From positions 1 through 44,406 of the forward strand of contig CAXXHG010000028.1 of the NCBI GenBank assembly GCA_963666315.2: 44,406 nucleotides of DNA, read 5' to 3'. Both the position numbers and the translations under genes were made by a program. The notes beneath the pieces are model-generated. The model did not search any database, was not told the origin of the DNA, and worked only from the letters and a program-made list of their open reading frames with translations. Positions 36,549 through 41,764 of this stretch are shown here, piece by piece. Positions within the stretch are counted from its first letter, which is position 1, and each line of letters opens with the position of its first letter. This DNA comes from Candidatus Binatia bacterium. GTDB taxonomy: Bacteria; Desulfobacterota; Binatia; Bin18.

Positions 36549-37082
36549 ATGACAACACAGGCAATTACACGCCATCCCTTCTCATGGTTTCTGGTCCTGG
36601 GCCTCGGTATCAGCGGATTTCTCATGTGGTTGATCTATTTCAACCCAGCCGCAACGGCAGAAGGAGATTGGGTCACGCTGCTACCGGCGGCGAATTCGTG
36701 TTTTAACGCGCTGTGCGCGTGTTGTTTGGTCGGCGGCTTCATCAATATTAAACGCGGCAATCGGCAAACGCATATGCGCTTTATGCTTGCGGCCTTAGGC
36801 TTCTCGACCCTCTTTCTCGTCAGCTATATTCTGTACCATTACTTCCACGGCGATACCGCCTTCCCTGGCCAAGGCCCGATTCGCATTGTCTATTTCTTTA
36901 TTTTGATTAGTCATATCGTCTTGTCTATAGTCACCCTACCGCTGGTATTTACCACCGTCTATTACGCCGCCCGAGGACAGTTTGAGTCCCACAAAAAGAT
37001 TGCCCGCTACACCTTCCCTATCTGGTTATATGTCTCCGTCACCGGGGTGTTGGTGTACTTTTTTCTCCGGGCGTATACCTAG
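36549..37082 (+). CDS. DUF420 family membrane protein
   Basis: LPAAN..FN, H.R.ML.A..FS.LFLVSY..YH...G.T.F.G.G.IR..YF.ILISHI.L, H.KIAR.T.PIWLYVSVTGV.VY. Confidence 0.9.
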   Translation: MTTQAITRHPFSWFLVLGLGISGFLMWLIYFNPAATAEGDWVTLLPAANSCFNALCACCLVGGFINIKRGNRQTHMRFMLAALGFSTLFLVSYILYHYFHGDTAFPGQGPIRIVYFFILISHIVLSIVTLPLVFTTVYYAARGQFESHKKIARYTFPIWLYVSVTGVLVYFFLRAYT

Positions 37083-37225
37083 GCGAGGGGCGGGTAAACG
37101 TATCAGCCCCCCTCTATATATAGCGACGCCGACTTTATTTTTCGTCCTTTCTGTGTCTCAGCTCCTGCCCAGAGTGGAGCCGACTCGGAGGTCTGGATGG
37201 CCCCAGTGTCTGGCGACGGTCAGGC

Positions 37226-37558
37226 TCAAGCCGAGGCATGCTGGCTGGTACTGTCGCGCCGTCTTAGATCAACCGTGACTGCTAGCGTCTCATCGAGAGC
37301 GGATAGCATGCGGATCATCCGGTCTAAGGTGAATCGGCCATAATCGGCATTGCGCACGCGGGAGAAATCTGCCGCCGCAAAGCCCATGGCTTTGGCTGCA
37401 TTGCGGACAGAAAGTTTCCGGCCTTCCAGAATGCCTATAATCTGGGCGGCTAGCCGCCCCTTGGCTTGGCGGATATCGGCGTCTGAATAGCTCAAGTCCT
37501 GCCAGATATTCCCACTGCCTGTGATCACTTCCACTTCTTTCTCTTTAGCTTTGCTCAT
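37226..37558 (-). CDS. XRE-family HTH antitoxin (HigA-like)
   Basis: GSGN.WQDL...DAD....K..LA..I...L....LS...AA...G....D.SR.RN....RFTLDR.I.ML..L. Confidence 0.88.
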   Translation of the reverse strand: MSKAKEKEVEVITGSGNIWQDLSYSDADIRQAKGRLAAQIIGILEGRKLSVRNAAKAMGFAAADFSRVRNADYGRFTLDRMIRMLSALDETLAVTVDLRRRDSTSQHASA

Positions 37559-37692
37559 GTGTTCCTCTCCTTCAACTGCTTCAGACGTGACCGGATCACC
37601 TCTACATCGACCTTCGAGGTCTTAATGTCGGTCGTGGATTTCTTCTGGGAGCTATGGTCCACCCACAGCATGTCCCCAAGCTGCACGGCATG
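37555..37692 (-). pseudogene. C-terminal remnant of RelE/ParE (Gp49-like) toxin
   Basis: Translates AVQLGDMLWVDHSSQKKSTTDIKTSKVDVEVIRSRLKQLKERNT*, matching the 'YAV......V.HAFQKKS..GIKT...D..LI..RLK' pattern; ATGA overlap with the antitoxin start. Confidence 0.8.
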
Positions 37693-37699
37693 ACTTCTA

Positions 37700-37729
37700 A
37701 ATGTTGTAAAATTCAACAACACCTGTCAA
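37700..37729 (-). promoter_or_regulatory. Putative TA operon promoter/operator
   Basis: TTGACA on the minus strand (37724-37729) and inverted repeat TGTTG-N7-CAACA (37702-37718); no clean -10 box. Confidence 0.45.
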
Positions 37730-37747
37730 CAATATTCTCTTAGTCCC

Positions 37748-37777
37748 GTAGGTCGGATTAGCGGAGCGTAGTCCGAC
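37748..37777 (+). repeat. GTAG-type REP (left flank of RAYT)
   Basis: GTAG-GTCGGATTAGCGGAGCGTAGTCCGAC hairpin. Confidence 0.85.
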
Positions 37778-37797
37778 ACTTCCAGCAGACGCCTCCC

Positions 37798-38275
37798 ATG
37801 TAATATCGACGAGCCTTTGTCCCAGGGGGGAACCTACTTCTTCAGTGTGGTAACCGAACAAAGACGAAAGCTGTTGGCCGATGAGGGGATTGTTGGGATG
37901 CTGCGCGAGGCGTTTCGACAAGGCAACAAGAAACGGCCCTTTACGGTCAACGCTATGGTGATCTTACCCGACCATCTCCACTGCATCGGGACCGTGCTGT
38001 TTGCTGATGAAGACTATCTCACTCGGTGGCATTTGATCAAAACCTGGGTGGCCAAGCATTACAAGACCCGCCTTAAACGCCTCTTGTCCCAGCTCAGCAA
38101 TAGCGGGCTAAGCAAGCAGTGTGGCAGGCTCTCTATTAGGAACACGTTATCCGGAACGAGACAAACTGCCCACAGCATGTGGAATACCCTCATTATAATC
38201 CGGTGAAGCATGGGCATGTCCAGAAGCCCTGGGATTAGCCGCATTCGAGTTTCCAGCAGTATGTGAAGGAGGGAG
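37798..38275 (+). pseudogene. REP-associated tyrosine transposase (RAYT), decayed
   Basis: M*YRRA..PGG/TYFFSVVT..RR; PF...AMVILPDHLHCI (HUH); RW.LIK; later frame VWQ..Y*EHVIR...HVEY.HYNPVKHG...PWD*PHSSF. Confidence 0.88.
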
Positions 38276-38278
38276 GAT

Positions 38279-38306
38279 GTTGGGCTACGCTGCGCTAACC
38301 CAACCT
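38279..38306 (-). repeat. GTAG-type REP (right flank of RAYT), interrupted by IS110 insertion
   Basis: Minus strand AGGTTGGGTTAGCGCAGCGTAGCCCAAC, inverted relative to the left REP; the leading GT of GTAG is replaced by the IS end. Confidence 0.82.
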
Positions 38307-39165
38307 TCCATGAGGGTCGTCAACCTCCGCTGGTTCCTGCGTGCCTCTCTGCTCTCGTGTCTCCTCCGACTGATGCCCAGGCAGTCCACGCTGGCTCGGT
38401 GTCGGGGTCGCGCGATGGTCCAGAGGTGAGTCTGGAGAACCTTCTATCCGGGCCGGAGAATTCCCGGCCCCCTATGCCACATGCGCAGTCCGCGCGGGTG
38501 CGACCCCGTTAGTCAGCGCCCCCTCTACGAAAACGGTCTGAGCGAACTCACCCAGGTTGGGTCCGGGCACTGACGCCACCGGGCGGGCGGCTCGGGCGCT
38601 TGTCCCTTAGGCTGGCGTGAGCACGGCCCCCGCCGGGAGCTGTCCCGTTTCCAAGTACCGCCACAAGGCAACACCTTCCGCGCTAGCGCACGCTCCCAAT
38701 GCGCCGCAACCGGGTCCCGCCGTGGGCAAAGCGGCGCTGAAACCACTGACGGAGGGCATTCTGGGGTTGGTAGCGCAGCCAGCACCAGCTCAGCTCTATC
38801 ATCAGCGTGCGCACACGCCGGTTGCCGGCCTTACTAATCCCTTGCTCGCGCTGGCGCTCCCCGCTCGCATACGGCGTGGGCGTCAGCCCTGCCAACGCGG
38901 CCAGCTCCCGCCGATTCCCAAACATGCGCCAGCCAAGAACTCCATCCCTAACCCCCACGCACTTTGCCACCCCACCGCCCGCAGCTTACGCAGCTCCTGC
39001 ACGACCCCCAGCGCGCCCGTCGGGGCCTCGGCCACCCGCTGCTTTTGGAGCGCCTCTAACGTTTGCACTTGGCGCTGCACCACTTGACACCGTTCCCACT
39101 CCCGTCGCAGCTCCGCTTGTAAGTCCGAGGGCAGCGGCTGCCCGTCCCAGCTTCGCAGGCCACGA
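38307..39165 (-). mobile_element. IS110-family element remnant (3' half of recombinase plus long 3' non-coding end)
   Basis: Frameshifted recombinase ~38607-39165: LRSWDG..LP..L...L.RE..R; NRRELAALAGLTPTPYASG...REQGISKAGNRRVR...IEL.W.WLR.QP; ALARK.L..LWRYLETG..P.GA. End carries TTGACG (38318-38323) pointing outward. Confidence 0.88.
38403..38574 (-). ncRNA. Candidate bridge RNA / seekRNA of the IS110-family element
   Basis: Two stem-enclosed internal loops. Loop segments match the insertion site (ACCCAACCT, CGTAG) and the IS end (ATAGAAG); see findings. Confidence 0.72.
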
Positions 39166-39490
39166 CCCGCAATCTTCATCTCAACCAGACCCCATTGGGG
39201 CTCTACCCGGCGACTGCTTCTTGCAGCGAAGGACTGCGGAGGGAGACGCTGACTTTCTGTTTTCCCTGTGACACACGCAGAAAATGGTTGAGGAATCACG
39301 CTCATACGGCCAATATCGGCCAATGCAAACAAGCCTTAATACAGATTCAGGGCACCTCCTTGGGAATAGTCATGCTTTTGCCTGTGGGGCGAGGAGGCAA
39401 AGCAGATTCCCCCAAAGGTTGGAGATTGACTGTTTGCATTAACTAATGTGGGGATACTGAACGGTATTGGCAAAGCCAAACAAAATCGAT

Positions 39491-41764
39491 TTAGAGTCGC
39501 AGAGTGATGGGCTCCAGCGCGTCACTGGGCGGCTGGACTGTGCCAATAATAACCGCCTGGTCATACCCCAGAGACTGAAGCTCCTGAACACAGGCTGGTG
39601 CTTGATCCGCAGGCAGGCTGGCCAAGAGTCCGCCTGCGGTCTGTGGATCAAAGATGAGGGGATAACGCGGATGGGGTGAGACCTGTTCAATATCTCGAAT
39701 CGCACGCCGCAGCCGAATATTCTGCGGTTGCAGGGATGAGAAGATCCCCTGTTCAATGACATCCAGGGCACCGGGAAGAATGGGCACTTGGTCAAGGCGC
39801 AGCTCAACATCGACTTCTGACGCACGGACCATTTCCACCAAATGCCCCAGCAGGCCAAATCCGGTGACATCGGTCATAGCCGTGGTCTTGTATTTGCGCA
39901 GGCATGCCGACCCGGCACGATTCGACAGACACATCGAGACCAGGGCGGTTTCGATCCAGCGGCTCTTGGCCTTACGGCGCATATCTGCAGCAAACAAAGC
40001 TCCCGTGCCCAAGGCTTTGGTGAGGACGAGCGCCTGACCAGGCTGCATGCCGCTCTTTTTCAGTACCGTGGCCTGATCAGCCAGGCCGTTGATCGCAAAG
40101 CCCAGTGCCAGCTCACTGCCTTCACTCGTATGCCCGCCGACGAGGGCCGTGCGCTCTTGATTCAGGACGGCGATAGCGCCGGCCATGAGCTGGGTGAGCT
40201 GATCTTCGACCTTATGTTCCAAGCCATACGGGATGGTGACCATGGCCAGCGCGGATTGCGGCTCAGCCCCCATGGCGAAGATGTCGCCCAGGGCGTGCGT
40301 GGCCGCAATTTTGCCAAAGATAAACGGGTCCTCAATAAAAGCCCGAAAAAAATCCACGGTCTGGACTACGACTTTTCCTGCCGGCACGGACACAACGGCA
40401 GCGTCATCCGGCGGGTGCAGGCCGACTAAGACGTCCGGCCGCTCGACTGGTTGCAGCTGGCTGAGCGCACGGGTCAGGACGGAACTGCCGACCTTGGCTC
40501 CGCAGCCGCCACAGCGCATGGCCAGGGCGGTGATATCCTTGATCACCTGCGGGTCGGCTAAGCGCGGATCAATATCCGACTGCTCGTCGGCGGCCTCGTC
40601 CATTGCGGGTAGCTGGTTGTATTTTTGAACAAAGCGCCGGTCTATCCAGTCCTTCCACTTCCACACCCAGCGTCCTTCCAGGGCCCACCCAGAACGTGAC
40701 GCAACGGCGTATTGATCTCCGGTTGAAATCAAACTCAGAAATTGCTTCTGGGGCGTAAACGGTTTCAGGGCGAGCCCGCGCACAGAGCGGCGCAGATTAT
40801 CTGCCAGCGGTGGACCTTGGCGGACAGCAAACACGCCGGATTTTGGGCGGGGATGATGCACCACCGCCGCAATATCTCCGGCAGCAAACACCTCGGCATG
40901 AGAGATCGACTGCAGACTATCCCGGACTGCGATAAAGCCGTGTTCATCGGTCTCCAGCCCCGATTCCCCAGGCCAAGTGGCGGCGACAGCCGTCGTGACC
41001 CACAGGACTTCATCCAACTCCAGAGGTGTTCCATCCGGGCAGAGAATATGTCCGCTAGACGCATGCGTCACCTGGCAGTTCGTTTTGATTTCAATATGGC
41101 GTTCATTCAGAATGCGGCGAAATTTGGAACGAACGCGGGCATTATGCGTGGGCAGGATATCGGCGGCGCCCGTCACGATATGGAAGACCAAGTCGCCAGT
41201 TGACCTGTTTTCCTGAACAAGTAATTGCATCAGGCGGTACTGGACGGCGAGGAGTAATTCAATACCACCCGCTCCACCCCCGATCACCCCGATGTGGGTC
41301 CGCTCAGTGCGTGCCAGGCACCGCTCGCGCAACTTTTCCCAGTGGCGCCAAAAGCCGTCGATAGGTTTGACCGGGACGCCGACTTGCTGTGCACCGGGAA
41401 TATTCATCATGGCCGGCGCAGAACCAATATTGATCGACAGCACGTCATACGGCACCGGTGGACGGTGCCGGCAGCGGACCTGTTTGCGGCTGAGATCCAG
41501 CCCGATCACTTCATCATGAAAAAAGCGTGCGCCGGCAAATCGAGACAGCGGCCCAAGATCTATATGCGCGTCGTCAAATTCATAATGCCCGGCAATATAC
41601 CCGGGCAGCATGCCCGAATACGGAGCGTGCGTGTCGCGACAGATAAGTGTCAATCGCAGCCCAGGCAACGGCTGCATGCCGAATTTTTTGAGGACCGTAA
41701 CGTGACTGTGTCCTCCACCTATGAGGACCAGGTCTTTAACGACCGGAGTTTGACTTAATTGCAT
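39491..41764 (-). CDS. selD: Selenide,water dikinase SelD fused to N-terminal FAD-dependent pyridine nucleotide-disulfide oxidoreductase
   Basis: [37 protein letters not shown]; [54 protein letters not shown]. Confidence 0.95.

Follow-up and report, generated by a model that had tools for sequence, protein, structure and literature searches.

A 5'-truncated IS110-family remnant inserted in a RAYT-flanking REP very probably carries a readable bridge/seekRNA gene

Positions 38307-39158 (minus strand) of the window, as we term the whole 44.4-kb stretch of Candidatus Binatia DNA analyzed here, very probably represent an IS110-family insertion sequence of IS1111-like organization that is 5'-truncated and frameshifted, a dead remnant with a bridge/seekRNA gene. 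An earlier note made from the letters of this DNA had proposed that the 3' noncoding end of the element encodes such a two-loop RNA, programmed against the REP in which it sits. Every stem, arm, hairpin, and minus-strand coordinate that it named was found in the sequence, as were the plus-strand segments ACCCAACCT (38298-38306) and CTTCCAT (38305-38311), and homologous loci support its two-loop reading: an RNA covariance model recognized 76 of 80 of them, and both the stems and the loop arms covary.

The transposase gene remnant occupies 38607-39158 on the minus strand and corresponds to residues 161-345 of a close homologue, the 345-aa transposase P0001, which tblastn aligned from residue 161 to its C-terminal end with 39158-38610 of the window. 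A 95-aa ORF of the remnant matched PF02371 on the minus strand (E = 7e-14). Full-length homologues carry both PF01548 and PF02371; the window element lacks both its left end and the N-terminal DEDD domain. Three-frame translation revealed at least two frameshifts. The metagenome relative X12 has insertions at 38671, 38674, 38688, and 38934; beyond 39158, the X12 sequence continues and is dissimilar to the window. We recovered 3895 transposase relatives, mostly of 377-383 aa, and the NCBIfam name for the family is "IS110 family RNA-guided transposase." Matches in the plasmid collection bore no element-specific name for the clade; they were labeled "IS110 family transposase" or belonged to the distant IS4321 family. 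A relative from a marine sediment metagenome, 90-97% identical and with unchanged guide sequences, is probably intact. The contigs of four sequencing runs speak only to the presence of the stretch.

The bridge/seekRNA is encoded in the ∼300 nt that separate the right end from the transposase stop codon (38607), and in the window it lies 33 nt past that codon. Its core, comprising the target loop and the donor loop as far as the right donor guide, lies at 38436-38574 (minus strand, as are all RNA features below) and was delimited by its match to R1, a covariance model of 144 positions built on 23 seed sequences including the window. The 5' strand of the target-loop outer stem, GUCAGUGCCC (38565-38574), folds with GGGCGCUGAC (38512-38521) to form helix 1. 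Within it lie target guide 1, ACCCAACCU (38554-38562), an inner hairpin (38535-38555; helix 2, with UGAG-UUCG-CUCA at 38539-38550), and target guide 2, CGUAG (38525-38529), after which come a conserved A and then the closing stem. A small hairpin, GCGC-GGACU-GCGC (38483-38495; helix 3), stands 5' of the left donor guide UGUGGCAU (38474-38481), a second donor guide that the earlier note had missed. The donor-loop inner hairpin (GGGCCGG/CCGGCCC, 38450-38472; helix 4) and the right donor guide GGAUAGAAG (38441-38449, with AUAGAAG at 38441-38447) follow. The donor-loop outer stem, CGGGGUCGC (38500-38508) with its 3' strand GCGACCCCG (38403-38411), was read from the fold together with the homologue alignment, and its assignment is supported by CNGG/CCNG at matching alignment places in homologues.

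Both the minimum free energy and the centroid folds contain the two outer stems and the two inner hairpins. The whole 393-nt stretch folded no better than its shuffles (z = +1.38; 94 of 100 shuffles folded at least as well). Because folding energy is thus nondiscriminating, the support for the RNA comes from the comparison of homologues. A scan of 37000-40000 against Rfam with E values up to 10 returned four unrelated matches, all under their gathering scores, and no relevant family.

A search with the window's noncoding end using nhmmer retrieved 22 loci. R1 scored the window at 98.8 bits, a value that is partly so by construction, as the window is among the 23 seeds. Its matches in the 76 homologous loci lie on the transposase strand, no more than 400 nt past the stop codon (median, 52 nt). 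Across the helices, 90.4% of cells were paired, compared with 31-50% in slid controls, and compensatory changes occurred in 19 of 27 pairs, a level that none of 500 shuffles reached. Changes on both sides were found in 7 of 10 pairs of helix 1 (93% of cells paired), 4 of 6 of helix 2, 2 of 4 of helix 3 (86.7% paired), and 6 of 7 of helix 4 (95% paired). On this comparative evidence, the 3' noncoding end reads as a conserved RNA with a pair of stem-loops, in both of which an internal loop surrounds an inner hairpin.

We then compared the arms of the target loop with the DNA flanking the elements. In the window, target guide 1 matches the right flank at 9 of 9 positions, predicting pairing with the transposase-sense strand of the right flank and core (AGGTTGGGT, 38298-38306), and the 9-mer ACCCAACCT occurs exactly twice in the 44.4 kb, once in the loop arm and once in the flank; shuffles gave a mean count of 0.19, with two or more occurrences in 0 of 100. 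All 17 loci of a first set scored 7-9 of 10 between guide 1 and their right flank (cross-pair mean, 4.36; 0 of 10,000 permutations as high). A larger set of 65 usable loci, drawn from 85 model matches, gave 7.22 of 10, and mismatched pairs gave 4.17, with no value as high in 5000 permutations. Six of these 65 pairs scored 5 of 10 or less, and in two of them, L061 and L062, the pattern had picked the wrong right end.

The window has lost its left flank and left end, so target guide 2 and the left donor guide were read through homologues and through a sister copy of the element in a related genome, G024. On the transposase-sense strand, the final 5 nt of left flank plus core have the same sequence as guide 2: in the G024 copy, the left flank ends in CCCGTAG and agrees with the guide at 5 of 5 positions, and every intact REP likewise reads CGTAG. 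Over 18 loci, guide 2 matched the left flank at 2.33 of 3 positions, versus 1.17 in cross pairs, and flank positions -3 and -4 equaled the arm in 17 and 15 of the 18 loci, respectively; neither result was equaled in 10,000 permutations. The core dinucleotide (38305-38306) is CT on the plus strand and AG in the transposase orientation. AG is present at both G024 junctions and occupies positions -1 and -2 in 18 of 18 left flanks. On the sense strand, the right flank is the pairing partner of the 5' arm, and the left flank has the sequence of the 3' arm; to judge from these alignments, the target-loop arms are complementary to opposite strands of the two flanks and overlap at the core dinucleotide. 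These data agree with the assignment of loop 1 as the target loop in the earlier note, which had matched its 3' arm to an intact REP, and covariation of loop arms and flanks over intact homologues, the check that the note had proposed, was strongly positive.

A corresponding relationship was observed between the donor loop and the element ends. In the right end of the window element (38307-38323, minus strand), a TTGAC box is accompanied by CCTCAT, one half of the subterminal repeat, and by GGA, and an A-to-G change relative to the sister copy falls in this segment; the conserved pattern in homologues is TTGACA-N-CATAGAA. The right donor guide is a copy of right end plus core. CGGATAG-AG is invariant among 23 aligned RNAs, and the right end reads CATAGAA followed by G in nearly all loci. 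The window right end, CATGGAAG, agrees with the guide at 6 of 7 positions, and that of G024, CATAGAAG, at 7 of 7. A G variant co-occurs in guide and end at L023 and L014 (GGAUAGGAG, with the identified right end CATAGGA).

The left donor guide would pair with the lost left end. Among homologues, 14 of 20 loci show 5 or more consecutive pairs between this guide and the left end, covering its first 5-8 nt, a count taken without a shuffle control, and the pairs covary (AAACT with AGUUU, ATCCT with AGGAU, and ATGCT with AGCAU). At L015, the left donor guide is identical to that of the window and the left end is ATGCTATGCA; the G024 left end starts with this same sequence (at L004 881). The donor-loop arms thus appear complementary to both element ends, which bears out the proposal that loop 2 is the donor loop. 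CTATG is common to both ends in 45 of 46 loci, with a total of 7-14 identities per 22 aligned positions, and the terminal extensions are AG plus 3 nt on the left and 1 nt plus AG on the right (published IS1111 values, 7 and 3). In reconstructed circle junctions, T(A/G)CTAT lies 19 nt past TTGACA in 32 of 46 loci; this spacing exceeds the usual 16-18 nt, and we therefore claim no junction promoter.

The REP that the element interrupts adjoins a pseudogene for a RAYT (REP-associated tyrosine transposase). The 5' GTAG head defines a REP. The interrupted copy (…GTTGGGCTACGCTGCGCTAACCCAACCT, 38277-38306, plus strand) supplies the right half of the target, and an intact, inverted sister copy (CCCGTAGGTCGGATTAGCGGAGCGTAGTCCGAC, 37745-37780, plus strand) lies on the far side of the RAYT gene and reads ATCCGACCTACG on the minus strand at 37747-37758. 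The RAYT gene itself (37817-38290, plus strand) is frameshifted after about residue 100, its tail continuing in another frame; its ORF matched NF047646 (E = 2e-22) with 79.5 bits against a cut-off of 80, and PF01797 weakly. The genome holds 24 copies of the 20-nt REP core pattern and 30 copies of AYCCRACCTACG; the family numbers 24-31 copies. Intact copies read CGTAG followed by GTYGG, and all listed copies carry the GTAG head. A repeated imperfect palindrome with two inverted copies flanking a RAYT ORF is the layout of a REP/RAYT system. The target ACCCAAC-CT-ACG, which had been proposed earlier, indeed corresponds to a variant of this REP; the exact 12-mer was found two further times in the genome, and the exact-match variant GGTTGGGTTAGC is rare (four occurrences). 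The wider suggestion of a REP-homing lineage held for this copy and for that of G024, which both sit in the REP, and only in part for the relatives, whose right flanks start a perfect hairpin in 11 of 64 cases compared with 1 of 59 control windows.

Taken together, the guides outline how an active copy would have worked. Insertion took place in the REP flanking the RAYT gene, at the CT (AG) within the GTAG head. In stem-loop 1, ACCCAACCU would pair with the transposase-sense strand of right flank plus core and the 3' arm CGUAG with the opposite strand of left flank plus core, so that both arms would specify ACCCAAC-CT-ACG, giving ACCCAACCTACG as the predicted target-site sequence. In stem-loop 2, UGUGGCAU would pair with the left end (ATGCTAT…), and the partner of GGAUAGAAG would be the right end (…ATAGA-AG) on its opposite strand. 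The RNA-bound recombinase would then draw together the REP target and the joined ends of the circularized element, with strand exchange at the core, a step modeled on the published work on IS621, ISEc11, and ISPa11. Production of the RNA, its binding by the recombinase, and its requirement for recombination are likewise predicted from published relatives.

The window copy evidently is a dead relic that can neither move nor be moved, as far as its sequence can tell. With the left end lost, the remnant cannot act as a donor. Its own genome, in an assembly that is 92% complete, gave one PF02371 match, no PF01548 match, and one R1 match, and there is no other transposase of the family in the assembly. 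DNA and RNA-model searches of this genome and 60 relatives yielded only one further copy, that of G024, so that 2 of 61 related genomes have an R1 match and both copies are broken; of 27 other genomes in the genus, 26 show no conservation of the locus. The G024 copy has the same position within the same REP family at a different locus. It lacks the 5' half of the target loop, and its right end still matches the donor guide. A target loop halved in this way speaks against selection on the RNA. The phrase of the earlier note that the guide survived while the protein decayed finds no support in the sense of retention, given the missing left end, the mismatched right end, the halved loop of the sister copy, and the lack of a transposase; the RNA gene would be intact since decay has yet to reach it, and not through demonstrated selection.

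Three other readings of the locus were weighed against this one. It is very unlikely that the RNA is still transcribed, for instance by read-through from the selD-fusion gene directly upstream on the same strand, and is functional, guiding an unassembled or newly arriving transposase or enabling the remnant to recombine at REPs. Such a role could draw on the intactness of all stems and all four guides in the window, on the weakness of the one terminator-like hairpin (39425-39409), on the incompleteness of the assembly, from which a transposase could be missing, and on the probably intact marine sediment relative with its unchanged guides. It is opposed by the lack of PF01548 and of a second PF02371 match in the genome, by a promoter scan of 38200-39500 that returned no sigma-70-like site against 0.3 expected, and by the state of the two copies: the left end is gone and the right end mismatches its guide in the window, half of the target loop is missing in the sister, and no more than 2 of 61 related genomes carry the RNA at all.

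Even less probable is a small RNA adopted by the host to act either on transcripts that contain REPs or on the activity of the RAYT/REP system. In its favor, the 9-nt arm shows complementarity to a REP variant on one strand, and the remnant adjoins the RAYT gene; against it, that gene is itself a pseudogene, the matching variant GGTTGGGTTAGC occurs only four times, and the locus lacks conservation in 26 of 27 other genomes of the genus. That there is no guide RNA, with the matches arising by chance or from REP palindromes copied into the element end, is hardly credible. In its favor are a G+C-rich region and a fold that shuffles equal; against it, the 9-mer recurrence was seen in none of 100 shuffles, the stems covary, and the loop arms track the flanks over dozens of unrelated targets.

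With the RNA and a long noncoding region downstream of the gene, and with the top-strand match 5' of the bottom-strand match, the element has two features of the IS1111 group. The published accounts, in the portions used here, describe IS1111-type elements as encoding their RNA 3' of the gene (PMC11187229, PMC11208160), with the top-strand match 5' of the bottom-strand match (PMC11187229). The only named IS1111-family relatives found were plasmid IS4321-family genes with 29.4% identity over residues 183-299 of 345, a weak basis for placement. The closest functional parallel is ISPa11 of Pseudomonas aeruginosa, an IS1111-family element whose 96-nt seekRNA homes to REPs, according to the sections of Siddiquee et al. 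(2024, PMC11187229) drawn on here; REP homing and subterminal inverted repeats are common to both. The window clade is distant, as judged through IS4321-family proteins (29% identity, C-terminal part). The subterminal inverted repeats of IS1111 elements as a rule span 11-13 bp with near-perfect matching, and their terminal extensions are short and asymmetric. Those of the window element are shorter and less perfect than in ISPa11 (CTATG plus a partial remainder, 7-14 of 22), and the copy is dead.

IS621 (IS110 group, Escherichia coli) shares with the window RNA target and donor internal loops whose left and right guides overlap at a CT core, in the part of Durrant et al. (2024, PMC11208160) that we used. 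That part also gives a REP target ending in CT-AC(G) (wild type, ATCAGGCCTAC) and an LTG/RTG arrangement that, read on the CT strand, is exactly the same: the 5' arm has the sequence of left target plus core, and the 3' arm is complementary to core plus right target. In the same account, the RNA of IS621 occupies the left end, on the 5' side of the gene, whereas the window RNA lies in the right end, 3' of a gene that runs opposite to the CT strand, and its left donor guide is preceded by the extra small hairpin, the multiloop arrangement noted there for IS1111 elements. At the protein level the relationship is remote: a phmmer search with P0001 against solved structures (IS621: 8WT6 and others) gave no match, and a 17-homologue profile matched ISCro4 and IS621 in their C-terminal domains only (E = 2e-7). 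For ISEc11 and ISXne4, the relevant excerpts of PMC11187229 report kept stems and two target-matching segments that change with the target, and the same was observed across our 65 loci, albeit in another clade and in a set known from sequence alone. ISPpu9, ISPpu10, and the ssr9-'tnp remnant of Pseudomonas putida resemble the window element, in the portion of PMC12288879 consulted, in REP insertion with AG at both ends and, for ssr9-'tnp, in the persistence of a 3' transposase fragment with a small-RNA module in the chromosome. ISPpu9 differs in that it belongs to the IS110 group and that Ssr9 is, by the same portion of that paper, not its bridge RNA and dispensable for transposition.

The bridge/seekRNA reading is right yet not new: this is an ordinary case of the mechanism described in 2024, and the novelty implied in the earlier note gives way to the 3'-encoded IS1111-type RNAs and the REP-homing ISPa11 published in that year. 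We consider it rather doubtful that the relic belongs to a deep, not-yet-described branch of RNA-guided IS110-family recombinases, and the clade may already be in published ISfinder-wide lists. The traits of such a branch would be the lack of a single-sequence match to solved IS621/ISCro4, an identity of just 29% to IS4321-family proteins that is confined to the C-terminal part, the 3'-encoded RNA, the short CTATG subterminal repeats, and the invariant GGAUAGAAG; the clade has members in Chloroflexota, Proteobacteria, Acidobacteriota, Planctomycetota, and others.

For the genome itself, the finding is of little import: it traces noncoding DNA beside a dead RAYT gene to the remains of a once REP-homing, RNA-guided insertion sequence. 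For the family, it provides a clean natural example in which all four bridge RNA guides can be read from sequence, and the comparison set (the 144-position covariance model, the RNA at 76 of 80 loci, and 65 guide/flank pairs) indicates that arm-to-flank covariation is recoverable from public genomes for a clade far from the IS621 and IS4321 types. Its use lies in annotation and possibly in the choice of new recombinase/RNA pairs, with the known mechanism unchanged. Should the branch prove to be as deep as the tentative placement has it, the 65 natural guide/target pairs would amount to a ready-made orthogonal set of programmable recombinases.

We examined the 3' non-coding end of the IS110-family remnant (window 38307-39158, minus strand), which reads on the minus strand as an RNA with two stem-loops. 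Stem-loop 1, the target loop, is closed by the outer stem GUCAGUGCCC/GGGCGCUGAC (38565-38574 with 38512-38521), which encloses arm 1, ACCCAACCU (38554-38562), an inner hairpin, and arm 2, CGUAG (38525-38529). Stem-loop 2, the donor loop, is closed by CGGGGUCGC/GCGACCCCG (38500-38508 with 38403-38411) and holds the hairpin GGGCCGG/CCGGCCC and, 3' of it, AUAGAAG (38441-38447). Reading through 37500-40500, we located every string that the earlier note had named, all at the correct coordinates. Both outer stems, read from the sequence, and both inner hairpins were present in the minimum-free-energy and centroid folds. The whole 393-nt stretch folded no better than its shuffles (z = +1.38; 94 of 100 at least as stable), so that energy argues neither way. 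The window contains just two occurrences of ACCCAACCT, one in the loop arm and the other at the flank (shuffle mean 0.19; two or more occurrences in 0 of 100 shuffles).

The flanking target belongs to a RAYT neighborhood. The RAYT gene (37817-38290, plus strand; NF047646 match, E 2e-22) is frameshifted, and a palindromic repeat stands on each side of it, the two copies being inverted. This repeat is a true REP: the genome holds 24 copies of GGTYGGRTTAGCGNAGCGTA and 30 of AYCCRACCTACG, and all intact copies read ...CGTAG^GTYGG... (^ marking the insertion point). In one copy, the element splits the sequence precisely between AG and GT. A frame change separates the HUH part of the RAYT gene from its ...YNPVKHG... 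tail, and a stop codon is present; both mobile-element genes of the locus, for RAYT and the IS110-family transposase, are dead. Near the sister REP, the intact inverted copy on the other side of the RAYT gene (37745-37780), lies a gene for a 110-aa HTH_37 protein (PF13744, E 5e-16), preceded with a 4-nt overlap by a 55-aa ORF without a family match (both within 37226-37722, minus), a layout that resembles a toxin-antitoxin pair. The gene immediately upstream of the remnant (39491-41764), likewise on the minus strand, encodes a 757-aa protein in which a pyridine nucleotide-disulfide oxidoreductase domain (TIGR03169) is fused to SelD (TIGR00476).

Conservation of the RNA was assessed in 80 loci from many phyla encoding full-length transposase relatives (50-61% identical). 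With nhmmer, the window non-coding end was found in 22 of them. The alignment contains the invariant blocks GCGCCCG, GGG, ACCG, AGA-UGGGGCGC, and CACGGAUAGAAG, and its two hypervariable stretches coincide exactly with the loop-1 arms that the earlier note had delimited. A four-helix structure was 90.4% paired on this alignment, compared with 31-50% in slid controls, with both-side changes in 19 of 27 pairs; none of 500 shuffles reached any of five measures. From the alignment we built a covariance model, which matched 85 times in 82 sources. In 76 of the 80 loci, a match lay no more than 400 nt past the stop codon, on the strand of the transposase gene, and a 77th, L069, was left out of this count solely because the stop-codon extension overshot.

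We compared the arms with the flanks. The right end was located from a conserved motif of its own, TTGAC...CATAGAA, without reference to the arms. The reverse complement of arm 1 matched 7-9 of the first 10 right-flank positions in all 17 loci (cross-pair average, 4.36; 0 of 10000 permutations as high). Across all usable model matches (65 of 85, the other 20 being without motif, arm, or sufficient flank), the mean was 7.22 versus 4.17 (0 of 5000 permutations as high), with six scoring 5 or less. The left end was set by A[TA]NCTATG, present in 20 of 22 loci. AG closed the left flank in 18 of 18 loci, and arm 2 matched position -3 in 17 and position -4 in 15 of these, fading beyond, which indicates a short guide of about 2-3 nt plus the core. 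Over three positions, the arm 2 match averaged 2.33 versus 1.17 for cross pairs (n = 18; 0 of 10000 permutations as high). The loop-1 arms thus track their flanks, as the earlier note had proposed to check. NTAG is specified at the left flank by 54 of 84 RNAs, and a perfect hairpin of at least 6 bp begins 11 of 64 right flanks versus 1 of 59 control windows; the relatives are only partly palindrome-homing.

In the donor loop, GGAUAGAAG reproduces the right end, and CATAGGA is present in the two loci that have GGAUAGGAG and in which a right end was identified. In 14 of 20 loci (raw count), the 5' arm of this loop is complementary to the opening 5-8 nt of the left end, and the two covary. Together, stem covariation and the arm/flank and arm/end matches bear out the proposed bridge/seekRNA with its target and donor loops.

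Several homologous loci showed unusual arrangements. L052 carries a second full model match (856-999; 111.7 bits) upstream of a complete element, and the right-end-like ...GATGGAA^G of this RNA directly adjoins the complete element at its left end, ATACTATGAAG, an arrangement that resembles a tandem or a right-end/left-end junction. L043 has an RNA module that lacks a transposase gene (863-993), located some 290 nt upstream of a complete element. The module has a right end to itself, CATCATAGAA, and its arm agrees with its flank, GCAGGCTGC, at 9 of 10 positions; it could represent a miniature element or one with a deletion. L065 (1194-1338) and L063 (301-438) have weak second matches (18.8 and 17.6 bits) upstream of the transposase gene, whose arm, GCGCCCACCCT, matches the flank past the right end, AGGGTGGGCC, whereas that of the strong downstream RNA, GCGCCCTCTCA, matches it at only 6 of 10 positions. 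Two identical inverted RNA copies within 1 kb at L010 (1790-1926, plus; 2639-2775, minus) suggest two elements inserted tail to tail. A -35-like TTGACA box is conserved 11-13 nt before the right terminus (right ends L005-L084; window 38318-38323) and, in 32 of 46 reconstructed right-end/left-end junctions, T(A/G)CTAT follows it at a distance of 19 nt; it may be part of a junction promoter, although its spacing is off the optimum.

The transposase itself is a fragment. A 95-aa ORF (38683-38970, minus) matches Pfam Transposase_20 (E 7e-14), and three-frame translation showed the C-terminal half split across three frames as far as the stop codon at 38607. Among full-length relatives, the closest is P0001 (345 aa), which is 88% identical to the 95-aa piece. 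By tblastn, 39158-38610 aligns to its residues 161-345, indicating that the window copy lacks the DEDD domain and all of the left end. Contigs from a marine sediment metagenome (X12), 90-97% identical over 38310-39158, have small insertions at 38671, 38674, 38688, and 38934, the frame-change sites of the window, and run into unlike sequence past 39158. This comparison fits deletions and truncation in the window copy, and a version of the element that is probably intact exists in the environment. The guide sequences of the X12 relative are unchanged from those of the window.

In the element's own genome (assembly 92% complete), we found no second DNA copy, no second match to the RNA model or to PF02371, no PF01548 match, and no transposase of the family. 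Only one of 60 related genomes, G024, carries a copy, at a different locus. Of the gene it retains the N-terminal half, in which the frame is broken; an internal deletion extends from the middle of the gene into that of stem-loop 1. Both junctions are kept: the left is CCCGTAG^ATGCTATGCAGG and the right CCCTCATAGAAG^GTTGGATTAGC..., which agrees with the window insertion in REP family and in position. This copy provides the parts that are missing from the window element: its left flank ends in CGTAG, which is arm 2 of the window RNA; its right end, ATAGAAG, is an exact copy of AUAGAAG; and its left end, ATGCTAT, pairs with GUGGCAU(C) of the window RNA.

The earlier note had also held that the guide survived while the protein decayed. 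Nothing points to survival in a selective sense: the left end is gone, the window right end, CATGGAAG, no longer matches the guide AUAGAAG whereas that of the G024 copy does, and the G024 copy has lost arm 1. A promoter scan found no promoter-like site in the remnant. The RNA part differs from the X12 relative at 7 of 282 positions and most coding pieces at more (6 of 130 up to 22 of 207), a difference that tells nothing of selection in the window copy, and the contigs may mix several variants.

Written as the CT strand, the target reads ACCCAAC-CT-ACG, with the 5' arm representing the left target plus core and the 3' arm the complement of core plus right target, the same LTG/RTG logic as in IS621 (PMC11208160). 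Marks described for the IS1111 type are a top-strand match that comes first, an RNA 3' of the gene, and subterminal repeats (PMC11187229). In transposase orientation, the top-strand match precedes in the window element and the RNA is 3' of the gene; the element ends in the family share short subterminal CTATG repeats. At the protein level, the clade stands well apart from the two types that have been studied: it is 29.4% identical to IS4321-family genes across residues 183-299, a phmmer search of solved structures gave no match, and a profile reached only the C-terminal domains of IS621 and ISCro4 (E 2e-7). We therefore call the organization IS1111-like, without a group assignment.

RNA-guided IS110/IS1111 recombination was published in 2024-2025, as were the placement of the RNA 3' of the gene in IS1111-type elements (of which 93% have a predicted bridge RNA), the REP-homing members ISPa11, IS621, and ISPpu9/10, and natural retargeting (PMC11187229, PMC11208160, PMC12288879). 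The NCBI family model already carries the name "IS110 family RNA-guided transposase." The window element, which the earlier note read correctly, is a decayed further example of this already described type of RNA-guided element.
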